From: a virus
Taxonomy: Duplodnaviria; Caudoviricetes
IMG/VR virus record: IMGVR_UViG_3300009103_000042
Location: 1 to 54,561 of that record
DNA length: 54,561 bases
Direction: 5' to 3' (one strand)
Shown here: in pieces, positions 3,241 through 21,330 of the stretch
How the letters are laid out: every line of letters starts with the position of its first letter
Position numbering within the stretch: position 1 is the stretch's first letter
Program-made: the position numbers and the translations under genes
Notes under the pieces: generated by a model
Database searches by the model: none
What the model was told of the DNA's origin: nothing
What the model saw: the letters and a program-made list of their open reading frames with translations, nothing else

Positions 3241-3412
3241 ACAATTGTTTAAAGACATTAAGAGCATTAAAGACATTTTCACACCTTTCAGTTAAACTAT
3301 GTTTATCCAATAAGGTAATTAATTAGATTATTATAGCTAGATTCCCGTCCTATGGTTACATCTAAGAAAGGTGTTATAGACATTAATTATAATTTTAATT
3401 AAACTTAATAAA

Positions 3413-14876: not shown

Positions 14877-15866
14877 ATGTATAACACTAAAGGACATCAA
14901 ATACTAAGTGTTGATAATATTCTGGAAAAAATAACTGAATATGATATTTTCAAGTATTATATAGAATCATTTGAAAAACCTGGTAAAAAATTCTGTTCTG
15001 AACTAAGAGCAGATAAAAATCCTTCTTGCAGTATAAAGGTAATGGCATCTGGTAAAGCAGTTTATAGAGACTGGGCTACTGGAGAGGTTTATGATTGTTT
15101 TAAATATGTACAGCAAAAATATAGTCTTAAGTACCATGAGTGTCTAAGAGTAGTGTCTAATGATTTTAATTTAGGACTCAGTTCTGGAGACATAGAACTT
15201 AAGAAAACTAAGGCTATTATAGGTGAGCATTTTAAGAAACAACCTAAATACTCAGATACTTCTATTAAGATAGTATCTATTCCTTTTACTAGTATTGGAA
15301 AATCTTACTGGGAATGCTATGGTATAAGTGAAAATGTTTTAAATAAATATCAAGTTAAACAAATTTCTCATTATTACATTAATACTTCTCTTATTACAAT
15401 TCCTAAAAAAGAAATAGCTTTTGCATATTCTTTTGGTAATTATAAGTATAAGATATTAAGACCTTCTGGGAATAAGTGGAAATGGATAAGTAATGTTAGT
15501 TCGAGTATAGTACAAGGACTTAAACAACTAGAAGAGTGTGGTGATACATTATTTATTACAAAGTCATTGAAAGATGTAATGGTACTTCATTCTTTGGGAT
15601 TTGATGCTATTGCTCCTCAGTCTGAGAATACAATTATACCTTTAAAAATAATTGTTTATCTTAAGAGCTGCTGGAGAAGAATTATTATCTATTATGATAA
15701 TGATGATCCTGGTATTACAGCCTCTAAAGAACATTCTGAACTATATAAAGTAGGATATGTTCATAATAACCTAGATGATCCTAAGGATGCATCTGATTAT
15801 TTTGTTAGGTATGGAGGAGATAATCTCAAAAAAATGATAATGCATTTAATTAAAAAACATGACTAA
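14877..15866 (+). CDS. DnaG-type primase (TOPRIM)
   Basis: Degenerate Zn-binding N-domain (CSELRADKNPSC...RDWATG); TOPRIM ITKSLKD, YDNDDPG and KDASD. Confidence 0.85.
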   Translation: MYNTKGHQILSVDNILEKITEYDIFKYYIESFEKPGKKFCSELRADKNPSCSIKVMASGKAVYRDWATGEVYDCFKYVQQKYSLKYHECLRVVSNDFNLGLSSGDIELKKTKAIIGEHFKKQPKYSDTSIKIVSIPFTSIGKSYWECYGISENVLNKYQVKQISHYYINTSLITIPKKEIAFAYSFGNYKYKILRPSGNKWKWISNVSSSIVQGLKQLEECGDTLFITKSLKDVMVLHSLGFDAIAPQSENTIIPLKIIVYLKSCWRRIIIYYDNDDPGITASKEHSELYKVGYVHNNLDDPKDASDYFVRYGGDNLKKMIMHLIKKHD

Positions 15867-16242
15867 ATCAATATTTATACCTGGAAATGTACCATCTTCT
15901 AAAAATAGTAAGCAGATGGTTATAAATAATGGAAGGACCTTTTTTGTATGGTCTAAAACAGCTCAAAAATATGTGAAAAATACTAAGAAAGATTTTGTGG
16001 ACAATGCTCCTGTGTTTAAAAGCTATGTTAAGGGACTTAAAAAACCTTATAAAATATCATTTAAATTCATAAGAGGGTCCAAACATAAATTTGATTATCC
16101 TAATCCATTACAGACAATATTAGACCTTATGGTTAAATATGAATGGATAGAAGATGACAATGCAGATGAAGTTATTCCTGTATTTGAGCCCTATAATTAT
16201 TCTAAGGAAAAACCTGGAGTAATAGTAGGAATTTTAGATTAA
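15859..16242 (+). CDS. RusA-like Holliday junction resolvase
   Basis: PSSKN, FDYPN...ILDLM...IEDDN acidic pattern. Confidence 0.7.
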   Translation: MTKSIFIPGNVPSSKNSKQMVINNGRTFFVWSKTAQKYVKNTKKDFVDNAPVFKSYVKGLKKPYKISFKFIRGSKHKFDYPNPLQTILDLMVKYEWIEDDNADEVIPVFEPYNYSKEKPGVIVGILD

Positions 16243-16269
16243 AATTTGTAACTTATAATCTGAAAAAAC

Positions 16270-16542
16270 ATGGAATATGATCAAAAATTAGTAGAACTTT
16301 TAACTGAAATGTCTATATCTCCTTTACTTATTGGAGATCCTAATAGTCTTAGGATTTTATTAGAGGACAAATTAGATGAAGCAAAATATAATACCTTAGA
16401 TATACAAGTAGTAGGTTTATCTGAAGATATAATGATAACCAGAGGAGAGCTGGGATATCTTCAAAAAGTAAGAGATGCTTATAATCTATTTATGGAGTTA
16501 TATCAAGATTACTTAGATAATCAATTAATTATTAATAAATAA
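16270..16542 (+). CDS. Hypothetical protein
   Basis: 90-aa ORF. Confidence 0.6.
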   Translation: MEYDQKLVELLTEMSISPLLIGDPNSLRILLEDKLDEAKYNTLDIQVVGLSEDIMITRGELGYLQKVRDAYNLFMELYQDYLDNQLIINK

Positions 16543-16553
16543 AAATTAAAAAA

Positions 16554-17081
16554 ATGAGTGTAAAAACAGAAAAAGAGACTACAACATCAACCAATCAAGA
16601 AGTAGAAACTCGTAGTGTAACTATATATTCTACTCAATCAAAAAGTAGTCAAACTATTGAAACCAGTGCTTCTACATGGGGAGAGTTAAGATCCGAATTA
16701 TCTGGTACAAAAAATGTAAGGGCAGTAGTTAGAGAAACTAGAAATTCTCTAGAAGGAGCTTCTTCTAAGCTACCTAATAATGATTTTACTTTATTTCTTT
16801 ATCCTGAAAGAGTAAAATCTGGAAATGAAGAATTACTTCAAAAAAAAAGTAAAAGAATTTCTAAGATTCCTAAAATTGCATCAACTGCTTTAGAAGCGTC
16901 AGAATGGGAGAATTTGAAACTACAAGAAGCTATAGCAGATACTTTATCAGAACTTAAAGTAGAATATAATAGCGCACTTGATGAGTTAAAGTTAAAAGAT
17001 GTAGATCTTTCTTCTATATCTAAAGAAGATCAAGAAATGGCAAAGGAAGCAGCTGCTATCGCAGCAGAATTGAGAATGTAA
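16554..17081 (+). CDS. Putative ubiquitin-like (beta-grasp) precursor with C-terminal helical extension
   Basis: Residues ~20-90 follow a beta-beta-alpha-beta-beta pattern (VTIYST..TIET..TWGELRSEL...LP..FTLFL) ending in VKSG90; first gene before E2/JAB/E1-like genes. Confidence 0.6.
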   Translation: MSVKTEKETTTSTNQEVETRSVTIYSTQSKSSQTIETSASTWGELRSELSGTKNVRAVVRETRNSLEGASSKLPNNDFTLFLYPERVKSGNEELLQKKSKRISKIPKIASTALEASEWENLKLQEAIADTLSELKVEYNSALDELKLKDVDLSSISKEDQEMAKEAAAIAAELRM

Positions 17082-17107
17082 TACCATTATTAATCTAAAT
17101 ATAAGCT

Positions 17108-17144
17108 TTTAGAGAAGAGTAACTCTCTTCTCTAAAGGTTTTAT
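17108..17144 (+). terminator. Hairpin / possible attenuating terminator between Ubl and E2-like genes
   Basis: TTTAGAGAAGAG / CTCTTCTCTAAA stem followed by GGTTTTAT. Confidence 0.5.
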
Positions 17145-17162
17145 ATTTAAAATTTTATACAT

Positions 17163-18434
17163 ATGGGAGTATCAAATAAACATGGACACATGATAGAATG
17201 TGAAGAGGGGGACTTCTTTAAAGTAAAGTTGGAACCTACAGAAAATGGACTGGTTGATACTGTATTTAGAGCAGACCGTCCTTGGAAATATAATCCTGAT
17301 TCTAAGTATAATGGATTAGCTGGAACTAATATTTATAGTAATAAGTCTGAGGTTATAATAGTAGAAAGAAATTATTGTATTTTATTATCTAAAGAAGAAC
17401 AAGAATTACTAGAAAAGAAAATGGAAGAGTCTTCTCAAGAAATTATTAGACAAGATGAAAAGATTATACAACAAGTAGTTGAATCTTTAGAATGTATTTA
17501 TAAAGATAATTGGGACTTACAGGTTAATCCTAATAATCCTCTTAGTCTTTATACTGTGATTATAAAATTCCCTTCTTTTTATATAGTAAATGGAAGAAAT
17601 GAAAGGCATGAGATTAAAGATTTATATGTAAGATTTAAATTTAAAAAGGGATTTGTTTTATCCTGTCCTATTGAAGGAACAAGAGGAACTCTTAGCTTTG
17701 TTGAATATGAGTCTAGATATTTACATTCTCATTTACCCAGACTAAATATAAGATCAAAAGAAGATCTGAAAGATACTATTGTACAGGCAACTTCCTTTAA
17801 TACTTTTTGTTTAGGTGTTGGAGATTTTGCTGATATAAATTCAGAATGGAAATGCGAAGATAAAGTATTTAACCAAGAAGAGTTTGAGTTATTATTATAT
17901 CAATTACAGGCTTACGTACAATGGGAATCTCTTGGAGGAGGTCCTTACATAAGTATAAGAGATATCTCTGTAAGAGATTGTAATTGGAGAGGGCATATAC
18001 ATGGATCAGGGAGGAAAGAAGCTTTTGAATCAATAATAGCTAATATTAAGAATTTTCCATTAAAATTTAATCACTTGAGAAGTAAGTTTGAAATAGATTT
18101 TTCAGAGTTAGAATCTTTTATATCTCCTTTAGAAAGCCCACATCTACCAAAGATAAAAAAGACAAGTGAAGGAGAATATATTTATGGACAATTAACTCCT
18201 TTAACTATCAATAGAAGAGTAGATGATGCTAACGAAATCTACAAGAGTGTTTCTCTTTTTAAATTTCAAGGAGAAGATATTTCATTAAAGATTACAGGAA
18301 TAAATACTGAAGATGAAGATGATCATTTAGAAGAAGTAATACATCCTGATATAACAAGACATATAGCAACTGAATTAGAAAAAAAAGTAAATAATAATGT
18401 CATTAAAAAACAACTAAGAAATGAATTACAATAA
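17163..18434 (+). CDS. Putative prokaryotic E2 (ubiquitin-conjugating-like) protein
   Basis: YLH188-S-H190-LP followed by F-C216-LG, resembling the HPH/HPN...CLG core of prokaryotic E2 families; adjacent to JAB and E1 genes. Confidence 0.55.
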   Translation: MGVSNKHGHMIECEEGDFFKVKLEPTENGLVDTVFRADRPWKYNPDSKYNGLAGTNIYSNKSEVIIVERNYCILLSKEEQELLEKKMEESSQEIIRQDEKIIQQVVESLECIYKDNWDLQVNPNNPLSLYTVIIKFPSFYIVNGRNERHEIKDLYVRFKFKKGFVLSCPIEGTRGTLSFVEYESRYLHSHLPRLNIRSKEDLKDTIVQATSFNTFCLGVGDFADINSEWKCEDKVFNQEEFELLLYQLQAYVQWESLGGGPYISIRDISVRDCNWRGHIHGSGRKEAFESIIANIKNFPLKFNHLRSKFEIDFSELESFISPLESPHLPKIKKTSEGEYIYGQLTPLTINRRVDDANEIYKSVSLFKFQGEDISLKITGINTEDEDDHLEEVIHPDITRHIATELEKKVNNNVIKKQLRNELQ

Positions 18435-19578
18435 ATTTAATAATATAACTGTACAAAAAACTAAAAAACCTGAGATAAATTATCCCATAGTAACTTCTGA
18501 AAAAAAGGGGAAATTAATTATATCTTCAGAATTAAAAAGCCAAATAGATTTATTTCATCTTATAGCTGGAAGTACAGAATGGTCCGGTATTCTTCTATAT
18601 AACGTAACAAAGGGAGATATTGAAAATCCAAAAGATCTGTTAATAGAAACTAAAGCGATGTTTCCTATGGATATAGGAACTCCAGGATATACAGAATATG
18701 ACTATGATGAGAGAGTATTAGATATGTATGATTTATATCCTAATGCTTTAACAGAAGAATGGAGATTAGGACATATTCATACTCATCACAACATGGGTGC
18801 CTATTTTTCAGGGACTGATCTTCAAGAATTAAAAGATAACATAGATAACCATGCGTACTATTTGTCATTGATAGTCAATTTTGAGGGAAAATATTGTGCT
18901 AAATTGTGTGTCAAAGCCGAAAGGAATATGACTCAGAAAAGTACTTTAAAATACTCAGGGCTATTTTCAGATAAAGAGAATGATTTAACTTTAAATTCTG
19001 AGAAGAAAGAATCTATAGTCTATAGTGTGGATCTTGATATTGAATTACCTCAAGAAGAAGAAAATTCTATTTCTTTTATAGGAGAAATTATAAAACTAAA
19101 GAATACTTCTAAAAAAGGTAATTATAGTTGGGGGAATTCTAGTAGTGATTATAGAAGAAATTCTACTATTAATCTAGATACAGGAAAACAAGTAAGTCTA
19201 TGGGATGATGTAATGACGGATGGTGAAGCATATGTTAATGAAGTTGATACTATTACTTCATTTCTATGTAAAGTAATAACCGTAGATCCTGAATCTAAAC
19301 TAGACAAAGGAGAGACTTTTAAAGAATTCCTATCTAAATATAATAAGAAGTACCTTAATATGACTTCTGGTGATAAAGTTTCTTATCATAGTTATATGAA
19401 TGATAATATATGGAATATAGCTCAAAATACCGCAAGAGATGAAAGTTATTATGCTGAAGAAAATCTTCTAGAAGATTCTATTAAGTATCTAAAAATCTTT
19501 AAAGGAGTTTCAGTTTTGGCAAGTACTTTAGACGAGGTAATAAAAGACTGTTTAAATGAATTTGGTTCAACCTTTTAA
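18421..19578 (+). CDS. JAB/MPN+ (JAMM) metalloprotease
   Basis: E53 (EWSG) and H120-T-H122-x7-S130-x2-D133 (GHIHTHHNMGAYFSGTD), an exact JAMM motif. Confidence 0.9.
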   Translation: MNYNKFNNITVQKTKKPEINYPIVTSEKKGKLIISSELKSQIDLFHLIAGSTEWSGILLYNVTKGDIENPKDLLIETKAMFPMDIGTPGYTEYDYDERVLDMYDLYPNALTEEWRLGHIHTHHNMGAYFSGTDLQELKDNIDNHAYYLSLIVNFEGKYCAKLCVKAERNMTQKSTLKYSGLFSDKENDLTLNSEKKESIVYSVDLDIELPQEEENSISFIGEIIKLKNTSKKGNYSWGNSSSDYRRNSTINLDTGKQVSLWDDVMTDGEAYVNEVDTITSFLCKVITVDPESKLDKGETFKEFLSKYNKKYLNMTSGDKVSYHSYMNDNIWNIAQNTARDESYYAEENLLEDSIKYLKIFKGVSVLASTLDEVIKDCLNEFGSTF

Positions 19579-19588
19579 ATAAATAAAA

Positions 19589-20266
19589 ATGACAGAAAGG
19601 ACTATAAATCCAAGGAGTGTTAGATTTTCTGATGCTCCTTGGTATCGTCCTGATATAGATGTAATAATAGGAGGAGCTGGGGGAATTGGTTCCTGGCTTT
19701 CCCTATTCTTGGGGAGACAAGAATGTAATATTTATCTATATGATGACGATGTAATAGACGAAACTAATCTAGGAGGTCAATTATATTCTACTAATATGAT
19801 TGGTAAGACTAAAGCAGATGCTACTGCAGATCTTGTAAGTCAATTTGCAAGCAATTCAATAGAGAAAATGGGAAAATACACTAATACGTCAATGACATGT
19901 CCTGCAGTATTTGCTTGTTTTGATAATATGGAAGCTAGAAAAATTATGTTTAATAATTGGGCTAGTTCTCCTAAAAAGCAAATTTTTATAGATGGCAGAA
20001 TGTTAGCTGAAAATTTTCAAATTATTGCAGTCACCTCTAAAGATATAGATAGATACCAAAAAGAAGAACTTTTTGATGATGCTGAGGTAGAGGAAGAAAG
20101 ATGTTCTATGAAAGCTACTTCTCACTGCGGAGCTTTAGTAGCAGGGTATATGGTATCTGTATTTAATAATTATGTATCAAATTACTTAGAAAAAGGAAAT
20201 TTTAGAGAGATTCCTTTTAAAATGTATTATGATCTTCCAACATTAACTAATACTATTAAGATATGA
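19589..20266 (+). CDS. ThiF/MoeB/E1-family adenylyltransferase (Ubl-activating enzyme)
   Basis: GAGGIGS, DDDVIDETNLGGQ, K, CFDNMEAR, IDGRM; candidate catalytic Cys172 (ERCSMK); no CxxC Zn pairs. Confidence 0.9.
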   Translation: MTERTINPRSVRFSDAPWYRPDIDVIIGGAGGIGSWLSLFLGRQECNIYLYDDDVIDETNLGGQLYSTNMIGKTKADATADLVSQFASNSIEKMGKYTNTSMTCPAVFACFDNMEARKIMFNNWASSPKKQIFIDGRMLAENFQIIAVTSKDIDRYQKEELFDDAEVEEERCSMKATSHCGALVAGYMVSVFNNYVSNYLEKGNFREIPFKMYYDLPTLTNTIKI

Positions 20267-21330
20267 ATACAGTTGCTAGAAAGAAATTAGATTTAGAAAG
20301 AGTAGACTTAGGTGTAGGTACTCCTTGGAATTTAGAGGGAAGTAATAGACACACAAGGAGTATTAATATCCAGGAGAGCAGTATGATGGGGAATAAACAA
20401 AATAATATAGTTCCTTTTTTCATATTAGAGAGACCGATATACCGTAATACTTTTGCAAGTCGCAATATAGTAGATTACAATGGCTATTATTCTAGTGGTG
20501 GGTATACCTGTACACTTTCTGAAATAGTATCTACAGAGAAATTATCTAAATACCCTATTTTAGAAGATAAATATCATGATATTTTGGTACAAAATATTAG
20601 ACTTATGATTCGAGAAAATGGTGGTAGTGAAGATATAAAATCAATTGAAAATATTTTAGATCTAAAAACTGAGATAATTGATATAATAGAAGACCTTAAA
20701 ACAGTTTTTAAGTTATCTAGTATAAATAAAGAATCTTTAGTAAAATCTTTTGATTATTATGCTGTGCCTGAGGATACTACTTTATCAGCAGTATATAGGT
20801 ATAGGACGTATAAAGATGGTCTCCTTCATTTTCTACAAAGTAATGGATGGTATAGTTTAACAACAAAAACAGTAATAGATGGAAATCTTTTACGATACCT
20901 AATAGGTCCTTATTTTCTAGGAGATGTTACTAGAAAAGGAATTGATCCCTTAGTTGTTTTAGTTACTAGGCCAGAATATCTTAGTTATATAGATTATTCC
21001 CTTAGTCTCTCTAAAGAGATAGATCCTAGAATTTTTCAAATATGGGTTAATCCTAAATTTGATGTTCCTAGAAGTAAATGGAAAGGAATTAGACCTTTAA
21101 TTAGAAAAGAATTCTTAATTCCATTTCACAAGGCAGGAGTTCCCATAATTGAAAAAGAAGACTTTAGTGAATTATTTTCTAAAATAGAAGTTCCTGTAAT
21201 GGAAAATATAGGGGATTATAAAAAATGGATAAAAAATTGTTCAAAAGATACTATGTCTTTATTGAGAGAAGACAACTGTATTATTCCTGCTAATGAAGTG
21301 GTAGGAGGAGGCCAAATGTTAGAAATATAA
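20263..21330 (+). CDS. Hypothetical protein coupled to the E1 gene
   Basis: 355-aa ORF with ATGA overlap onto the E1 stop. Confidence 0.7.
   Translation: MNTVARKKLDLERVDLGVGTPWNLEGSNRHTRSINIQESSMMGNKQNNIVPFFILERPIYRNTFASRNIVDYNGYYSSGGYTCTLSEIVSTEKLSKYPILEDKYHDILVQNIRLMIRENGGSEDIKSIENILDLKTEIIDIIEDLKTVFKLSSINKESLVKSFDYYAVPEDTTLSAVYRYRTYKDGLLHFLQSNGWYSLTTKTVIDGNLLRYLIGPYFLGDVTRKGIDPLVVLVTRPEYLSYIDYSLSLSKEIDPRIFQIWVNPKFDVPRSKWKGIRPLIRKEFLIPFHKAGVPIIEKEDFSELFSKIEVPVMENIGDYKKWIKNCSKDTMSLLREDNCIIPANEVVGGGQMLEI

Follow-up and report, generated by a model that had tools for sequence, protein, structure and literature searches.

Results and discussion

The ubiquitin-like gene and its operon

The DNA analysed here, called the window throughout, is a virus record of 54,561 bases taken over its whole length (IMG/VR record IMGVR_UViG_3300009103_000042; Duplodnaviria, Caudoviricetes) and estimated to be 53% complete. 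The plus strand of this marine phage DNA carries a gene for a ubiquitin-like protein (Ubl), followed by a terminator-like hairpin and by genes for an E2-like protein (X423), a JAB/JAMM metalloprotease, a minimal ThiF-type E1 and a conserved protein that we call Y355 (Table 1). A conserved glycine, G90, closes the beta-grasp domain of the Ubl, and behind it the reading frame continues for another 85 residues. With this glycine buried before a long tail, and with genes for an E2-like protein, a JAB and an E1 at its side, the Ubl probably must be cut before use; we suggest that it is an obligate precursor, probably cleaved behind G90, and that the JAB of the operon is the most likely protease. 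The precursor matches PHROG family 15560 and this, like every PHROG family matched by the module, is listed as being of unknown function.

Table 1. Features of the Ubl operon (positions in the window; aa, amino acids)
Feature	Positions	Strand	Basis and remarks
Ubl precursor gene	16554..17081	+	175 aa plus stop; open reading frame list and sequence
Residues 1-19, low-complexity N-terminal extension	16554..16610	+	Specific to the close family; most relatives begin at profile position 18-21
Residues 20-90, beta-grasp (ubiquitin-like) domain ending K88-S89-G90	16611..16823	+	AlphaFold2, Foldseek, column conservation
G90 codon GGA, proposed cleavage/activation site	16821..16823	+	Sequence, alignment columns
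Residues 91-175, tail	16824..17078	+	Basic disordered start (91-116), then two helices; AlphaFold2
Run of nine A, codons Q96-K97-K98-S99	16840..16848	+	Sequence
Residues 117-175, conserved C-terminal helical module	16902..17078	+	End ...M-A-K-E-A-A-A-I-A-A-E-L-R-M; tail-only profile
Terminator-like hairpin, 17 bp, loop 5	17103..17141	+	Folding; behind the Ubl gene, ahead of the enzyme genes
X423, E2-like protein, core (UBC/UEV/RWD-like) ~94-270	17163..18434	+	Structure match; invariant H190, C216
JAB/JAMM metalloprotease, 385 aa, uncharacterised C-terminal half	18421..19578	+	Pfam, alignment
Minimal ThiF-type E1, 225 aa	19589..20266	+	Pfam ThiF 53.6 bits, cut-off 28.1
Y355, conserved downstream gene	20263..21330	+	Overlaps the E1 stop; homologue after E1 in 48/83 stretches

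The Ubl precursor was modelled with AlphaFold2 from an alignment of 15 homologues. The core of the model, residues 20-84, has the order beta-beta-alpha-beta-beta-beta, with strands at 20-26, 31-37, 55-59, 64-66 and 78-84 and a helix at 42-48, and is thus predicted to adopt a beta-grasp fold; G90 sits six residues past the last strand, at the end of the domain (...FTLFLYPERVKSG). The predicted local distance difference test (pLDDT) is 76-86 for the core block and falls below 50 at residues 1-11 and 13-16 of the N-terminus, and again for residues 89-98 and 109-115. When the model was compared to the PDB with Foldseek, nearly all of the matches listed were of the ubiquitin superfold (ubiquitin, ISG15, DIX, UBX, kindlin); single-domain targets gave TM-scores by target of ~0.6-0.67 and root-mean-square deviations of 2.6-3.7 A over 74-81 columns, with best E-values of 0.009 or above. 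A first-pass annotation of the window, made from its letters alone, had read a beta-grasp pattern ending at VKSG90 with a tail of 85 residues behind it. The reading frame, the structural model and the Foldseek matches all agree on the first point, and in the model the tail is indeed disordered at first and helical later on.

The fusion of Ubl and tail in one frame is no single-sample assembly artefact, since independent contigs are identical here: one from run X2, another sample, covers positions 16500-17250 with zero differences, and one from run X3, another study, covers 16594-17036 with zero differences or gaps. Run X1 is possibly the source sample, and we do not count it as independent.

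Conservation of the Ubl ends at the glycine

Searching 1.84 billion proteins with a profile made from the 15 nearest homologues gave 1151 cluster representatives at E <= 0.001; 150 of these, as listed, and the 15 first homologues make up an alignment of 163 rows. Column 90 is glycine in 161 of the 163. The two rows without it are P0028, which diverges just ahead of the motif, and P0114, an open reading frame (ORF) consisting of the tail only. Upstream of the glycine, P84 and K88 are each kept in 150/163 rows, and position 89 is a small residue throughout most of the family (S in 148, A in 10, G in 1). At position 91, directly behind the glycine, the commonest residue is found in only 26 rows, and the tails that follow in the aligned relatives are hypervariable and measure anything from 1 to 248 residues. 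The first-pass annotation had predicted such a drop right past KSG, and had named beforehand a non-conserved G90 as grounds for giving up its reading; the reading survives this check.

No relative examined has the glycine as its last residue, be it among the 161 aligned rows, the 70 unique viral loci described below or 53 short-form relatives. The single apparent tail of zero length in the alignment, P0019, is a misaligned fragment whose residue falls into the glycine column by chance, and is one of the 161. Short-form Ubls of the 70 unique viral loci stop 1, 3 or 5 residues past the glycine. The 53 short-form relatives are new proteins from a search seeded with an alignment of short forms; a word-index search using the beta-grasp region of the window's own Ubl gave no short-relative candidate. 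The motif is present in 52 of the 53, and in 28 exactly one variable residue stands behind the glycine (26 counted by script and two added by eye, where the script's pattern had matched an earlier site). Several of these short forms lie on contigs of 80-125 kb and are therefore no truncations.

The module in other viruses

An alignment of three E1 proteins led to 80 loci from viral contigs. Together with one earlier locus, which lies on the same contig as one of them, with the phage FpV4 and with the window, they form a set of 83 stretches in which gene order was assigned from iterated profile searches of the locus ORFs. The order Ubl-X-JAB-E1 (X being the homologue of X423) holds in 81 of them, and the other two begin inside JAB at a contig end. 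The cultured relatives are phages of Flavobacterium psychrophilum, the FpV4 group, which are lytic, have genomes of ~88-92 kb and encode a Ubl homologue of 289 aa. A scan for the E1 pattern in one genome each of 185,579 prokaryote species returned 2 weak matches only, and the module therefore looks virus-borne. In an archaeal metagenome-assembled genome, a 2.4-kb contig (L085) encodes an E1 homologue with 39% identity over 143 residues; the contig is probably viral and was swept into the bin of an uncultured archaeon. No account of a phage-encoded Ubl-E2-JAB-E1 module turned up in a literature search, the supplementary operon tables of the papers on the bacterial Bil system lying outside its scope.

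The tail and its probable, separately encoded counterparts

In the model, the helices of the tail span residues 117-145 and 157-172. The tails of relatives contain acidic runs, Lys/Ala-rich runs and helical segments, and their sequences vary greatly except near the C-terminus, where 58 diverse long-tailed members share the consensus L-x-x-E-A-x-x-I-A and the column of M162 is Leu in at least 90%. A tail-only profile, made from the close family of the window's Ubl, matches 9/132 other tails at E <= 0.001 and 15/132 at E <= 0.01, against 0/132 for shuffled and 0/132 for reversed tails used as controls; each match places the C-terminal 50 profile positions at the extreme end of the tail, whatever the tail's length. 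A second profile, made from the last 32 tail residues, proved too weak and had 0 matches at E <= 0.01. Pfam recognises a SAP domain in the tails of 8 of the 58 diverse members (best E 1.6e-6), and a Protein Atlas search with the tail returned generic helical look-alikes only.

Where the Ubl is short, the operon has a "gap" of 120-340 nt in front of X, and in 15 of 17 short-form lineages this gap carries an ORF of 32-105 aa with an ATG of its own, often overlapping the Ubl stop codon as TAATG. The encoded proteins are helical and mostly acidic. By position and composition, we regard the small ORF as the counterpart of the fused tail. Of the two lineages left, L042 has neither tail nor small ORF, and L052 is ambiguous. 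Sequence homology between small ORFs and tails, seemingly present in phmmer at first (E 2e-4 to 5e-3), was discarded, the values being not clearly better than those of shuffled and reversed controls. A C-terminal [EQ]-[LMIF]-G motif, picked post hoc, occurs in 4/16 small ORFs, 27/144 tails and 16/2080 other ORFs.

In a maximum-likelihood tree built quickly from 69 E1 proteins, 65 rows were labelled with the form of the Ubl (45 long, 19 short, 1 intermediate). Parsimony gives 7 long/short switches among them, and the architecture has therefore changed repeatedly.

These features make it unlikely that the tail is junk. That its last helix is conserved suggests docking to a partner that is conserved as well, and the SAP and Lys/Ala-rich tails suggest DNA binding in some lineages. 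The earlier proposal that the released tail may be functional is thus backed, and is extended by the C-terminal module, the SAP domains and the small ORFs. One could instead see in the tail a disposable inhibitory propeptide, functionless once removed. Such a propeptide would be free to vary in length and sequence as these tails do; many relatives have a one-residue cap only, the L042 lineage has neither tail nor small ORF, and the Atlas matches were of a generic kind. Against this stand the C-terminal module, which part of the family conserves at the very end of tails of unequal length, the SAP domains, and the retention of a small helical ORF at the tail's place when the Ubl is short. We therefore consider a mere propeptide unlikely, if still a serious alternative.

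The enzymes of the operon

In an alignment of 42 sequences, X423 has H190, C216, G218, E255, G259 and P261 invariant, and C216 together with the upstream H190 may represent the catalytic cysteine and conserved histidine of an E2. Its AlphaFold2 model (pLDDT 80.8; predicted TM-score 0.77) shows a long helix, a four-strand meander and a loop containing H190, then C216 and more helices. Structural matches found with VIA include the UEV domain of Tsg101, several E2s, RWD domains and a chain of a Bub complex (9eav_D, Z 5.2). A Pfam scan of the 42 members found no E2 family, and the X423 profile had no match below E 0.3 among PDB sequences. Because the structural scores are middling, we call the protein E2-like rather than an E2.

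The JAB has the zinc-site pattern E...HxH...S..D, and E53, H120, H122, S130 and D133 are invariant in 44 sequences; PADLOC assigned it to generic JAB models only (E 1e-3). The E1 scores well above the Pfam cut-off for ThiF and contains the nucleotide loop and the conserved cysteine; G29, G31, D54, K75, D112, R117, R137 and C172 are invariant in 69/69 sequences. All three enzymes keep their catalytic residues and, judged by these, look competent. For Y355 there was no match in Pfam, PADLOC or PHROG; the Protein Atlas gave a chance-level M13 peptidase score of 0.90 with matches at TM 0.3, its own model having a pLDDT of 0.34. Y355 may be a fifth component of the module, either a target, an adaptor or an E3-like factor.

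An operon of Ubl, JAB and ThiF-type protein could also serve sulfur transfer. QbsE with QbsD and CysO with Mec+ are systems in which a small beta-grasp carrier is trimmed by the JAMM protease of its operon, QbsE losing extra C-terminal residues, and is then activated by a ThiF/MoeB-like enzyme; these carriers end in GG and work with sulfur-transfer enzymes, without an E2-like partner. By this account, the Ubl of the window would be a ThiS/MoaD/QbsE-like carrier that is trimmed by JAB and thiocarboxylated via the E1 on the way to a thiolated cofactor, tRNA or DNA base, and no protein would be modified. The E1 is a minimal ThiF-family protein of 225 aa whose FpV4 homologue is annotated as "thiamine biosynthesis protein", and the survey by Iyer et al. 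2006 ties JAB to ThiS/MoaD-type operons (PMC1779556). However, the family ends in K-[SA]-G with a single glycine rather than GG, and its operon includes a conserved UBC/UEV/RWD-like protein with invariant Cys and His, a partner that the JAMM-trimmed sulfur carriers lack. No rhodanese, desulfurase or other sulfur-transfer family was found among the 16 neighbouring proteins scanned, and the neighbours are replication and repair genes, although Y355 and several small ORFs match no family and leave room for a novel sulfurtransferase in Y355. A sulfur carrier is accordingly improbable.

The hairpin between the Ubl gene and X423

The 84-nt spacer between the Ubl gene and X423 folds at -26.8 kcal/mol, compared to -8.4 +/- 2.3 kcal/mol for shuffled sequences (z = -8), and 0/200 shuffles were as good. 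The hairpin reported by the first-pass annotation is therefore real, with its limits slightly displaced: 17108-17144 was given, and we find 17103-17141. Among the 70 unique loci, 57 have a hairpin of -10 kcal/mol or lower within 90 nt upstream of the X start, and in 36 of these 57 it is followed by at least 5 T in nine bases. The hairpin usually ends 12-24 nt short of the X start codon, and its stem sequences differ among loci; ahead of the E1 and JAB starts, a search by the same criteria gave 8/70 and 5/70, respectively. A structure at the Ubl/X junction is thus conserved. We suggest that it most likely works as an incomplete intrinsic terminator, or else stabilises the 3' end, which would result in more Ubl(-tail) message than enzyme message. 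That the hairpin keeps Ubl in excess over the enzymes, as had been proposed, is supported only in so far as the junction hairpin is kept in these 57 loci; transcription attenuation as such we infer.

In some operons of the split type (L027 at ~3350-3400, and also L020 and L036), the last codons of the small ORF (...K-E-L-G-stop) form the 5' arm of the hairpin, and a conserved protein end and an RNA stem are therefore encoded by the same bases.

A run of nine A in the tail

Shortly behind the G90 codon, the tail frame runs through nine consecutive A. P0002 is identical to the window's protein through residue 98 and then continues in the frame expected from one missing A, stopping after 112 aa. 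Two more proteins, P0011 and P0012, end within the corresponding Lys run, where the tail-only P0114 begins. The A9 state is present, without indel, in contigs of runs X2, X3 and X4. These frameshifts are due either to homopolymer error or to real slippage that turns a fused gene into a split one. If slippage were programmed, one gene would yield the fused Ubl-tail as well as a Ubl with a short cap, much as the split architecture does, and the frame of P0002 as well as the stops and start of the other three proteins would be consistent with it. Homopolymer sequencing errors account for such frameshifts equally well, though, AAA-coded Lys runs are to be expected in an AT-rich genome, and the contigs of three runs show A9 without indel, even if contigs drop rare variants. 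We give programmed slippage a very small chance.

A proposed pathway from precursor to conjugate

Taken from conservation and gene order, and for the cleavage by JAB from analogy, we propose the following pathway. The Ubl would be made inactive, with its reactive G90 buried in the peptide bond to the 85-residue tail. JAB, encoded two genes downstream, would cut between G90 and N91, giving a 90-residue Ubl with ...K-S-G at its end and, as a second product, the helical tail. The E1 would adenylate G90 and take the Ubl onto C172; X423, with its invariant C216 and H190, would then receive it on C216 and pass it to lysines of target proteins, and JAB could also reverse the conjugation. The tail itself would be an accessory protein co-translated 1:1 with the Ubl, like the partners in eukaryotic ubiquitin-ribosomal-protein fusions, and in related phages the small helical protein would be encoded separately at the tail's place, or the tail would be missing.

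A number of observations weigh against this pathway or parts of it. The VIA matches of X423 have Z-scores of 5.0-5.8 over ~100-147 residues, where according to the tool Z < 8 may reflect a common arrangement, and its best Foldseek E-value is 0.19. The Pfam match of the JAB to Prok-JAB reaches 21.7 bits against a cut-off of 25 and extends over 34 residues. When JAB (44-row alignment) and the complete precursor (15-row alignment) were modelled together, both runs scored 0.00, which counts neither for nor against binding, so that JAB is tied to the G90-N91 bond by analogy. The L042 lineage, having neither tail nor small ORF, argues that the tail is dispensable for the core reaction. The small ORFs are no more similar to fused tails than to reversed or shuffled tails, and the equivalence of the two is based on position, composition and the post-hoc motif. 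Regarding the hairpin, the controls were coding sequence and not other intergenic spacers, and the T-run behind the hairpin in the window is interrupted.

Among the least probable of the readings considered is that the uncut Ubl-tail is the working form, with G90 as a structural hinge and JAB acting on other substrates: it finds a parallel in the lambda-type tail assembly protein I, a Ubl joined to a C-terminal domain by a Gly-rich linker, whose processing is only predicted (Iyer et al., PMC1779556), but it conflicts with the end of conservation exactly at the glycine, leaves unexplained the dozens of relatives that end 1-5 residues past it, and sits badly with the presence of an E1, as known E1 substrates require a free C-terminal glycine in the sources on which we draw.

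Comparison with known systems

An obligate Ubl precursor recalls ubiquitin itself. Eukaryotic ubiquitin precursors are either fusions of ubiquitin to ribosomal proteins or polyubiquitin with a one-residue cap, and cleavage of the fusions frees both partners 1:1. In the viral family, too, an N-terminal Ubl is joined via its C-terminal glycine to an unrelated protein, and one-residue caps are found elsewhere in the family. The partner is different, being a ribosomal protein in eukaryotes and a helical, partly basic tail here (with SAP domains in some relatives), and so is the presumed protease, here a JAMM metalloprotease of the same operon.

The first-pass annotation had likened the system to bacterial Bil operons, which is right in logic and does not extend to membership. 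In type II Bil (bacterial ISG15-like), a Gly of BilA is universally conserved, and up to nine non-conserved residues come after it; that the JAB protease BilC cuts behind this Gly, thereby exposing it for the E1, was shown by Edman sequencing and from crystal structures (10.1101/2023.09.26.559546). The gene order Ubl, E2, JAB, E1 is the same, the E2 assignment in our case being structural only; both have a conserved Gly with non-conserved residues behind it, and a small residue in front of it (A-G in E. aridi BilA, S/A-G here). Yet PADLOC found no BilA, BilB or BilC match for the module, and the E1 gave a weak partial match to BilD (E 4e-4 over 78 residues), whose profile has 453 positions compared to the 225 aa, half that length, of the E1 here. 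Extensions of at most nine residues in Bil contrast with 85 aa in the window and more than 200 aa in relatives, with conserved content, next to short forms of 1-5 aa. Bil operons lie in bacterial defence islands, whereas the present module lies in lytic-type phage genomes, within a replication module. It falls outside Bil by its profile matches, the architecture of its E1, the length of the extension and its host.

The alternation of fused and separate partners has a counterpart in the "6e" operons, now called Bub (Iyer et al. 2006; Corbett laboratory, 2024 preprints), for which section 14 of Iyer et al. describes a C-terminal partner of the Ubl that elsewhere is a standalone gene between Ubl and E1 (PMC1779556); Bub Ubls with C-terminally fused E2 domains are also mentioned in a later paper (PMC11601603). 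As so described, the alternation resembles that of tail and small ORF, and X423 has a chain of a Bub complex among the structures that it matches. In Bub, though, it is an E2-like domain that is fused to the Ubl, while in the present family the E2-like protein always stands alone and the Ubl is fused to a helical tail; Bub also differs from the module in its peptidase and E1 architectures.

Closer in host, the tail assembly protein I of phages lambda and T1 is a Ubl with an end Gly and a C-terminal domain, encoded beside the JAB-NlpC protein K that is predicted to cut it, according to the same survey's section on these phages (PMC1779556). The likeness extends to a phage Ubl with a conserved end Gly, a C-terminal fusion and an adjoining JAB. 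As that section presents them, proteins I and K belong to a tail-assembly module without E1 or E2; our module lies among replication genes and has both an E1 and an E2-like protein.

Significance

The Ubl family comprises at least 1151 sequence clusters at 50% identity. Going further, we tentatively speculate, while holding it to be somewhat short of probable, that phages forming a large group, mostly marine and likely infecting Bacteroidota, carry a ubiquitination-like cascade of their own, complete with Ubl, E2-like protein, JAB and minimal E1. As the modifier would always be made capped, the phage JAB would act as an on-switch. The cap would repeatedly have been swapped among a single residue, a separate helical protein and a fused tail, the last binding DNA by way of a SAP motif in some lineages. 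The genes would then be a viral counterpart of eukaryotic ubiquitin-fusion genes, and host or phage proteins would be modified during replication, in takeover or counter-defence.

To our knowledge, prokaryotic ubiquitin-like conjugation has so far been characterised as an anti-phage defence of bacteria (Bil, type II CBASS, Bub). Here a conserved, widespread module is found on the phage side, so bacterial viruses may turn this chemistry against their hosts or employ it inside them. The obligate glycine cap is an obvious point of regulation, and the alternation of fused and separate partners provides a natural "Rosetta stone" that parallels the eukaryotic ubiquitin-fusion genes. Relatives in cultured Flavobacterium phages give experimental access to the module; with K88 conserved, modified lysines should still carry a Ser-Gly remnant after trypsin digestion, by which standard proteomics could find the targets.

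Additional features of the loci

Upstream of the Ubl gene, the window encodes a DnaB-like helicase, an AAA_24 ATPase and a Toprim primase, and the downstream neighbours include a PD-(D/E)XK-like protein and a uracil-DNA glycosylase. Immediately upstream, at 15859-16542, lie two small ORFs of 127 and 90 aa that recur in part of the related loci; the former (p127) was found in 19 ORFs and the latter (p90) in 24. A scan for sigma-70-type promoters, which does not cover the promoters of Bacteroidota, found 52 sites compared to 55.9 +/- 7.9 in shuffled sequence, and searches of the whole window (1-54561) with Rfam at gathering threshold and with a tRNA scan found no family and no tRNA gene.

In several relatives, the enzyme genes are interrupted. 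An insert of 0.2-1.2 kb splits JAB in L017, L013/L014, L041, L078 and L084, and E1 is split likewise in L080/L081 and L084. The break in L017 (3980-5082) falls within the JAMM motif (...GGIHTH / ...FFSGTD), and the insert contains an ORF of 260 aa on the opposite strand with two LAGLIDADG-like motifs, as if a homing endonuclease or an intron had inserted into the codons of the catalytic site.

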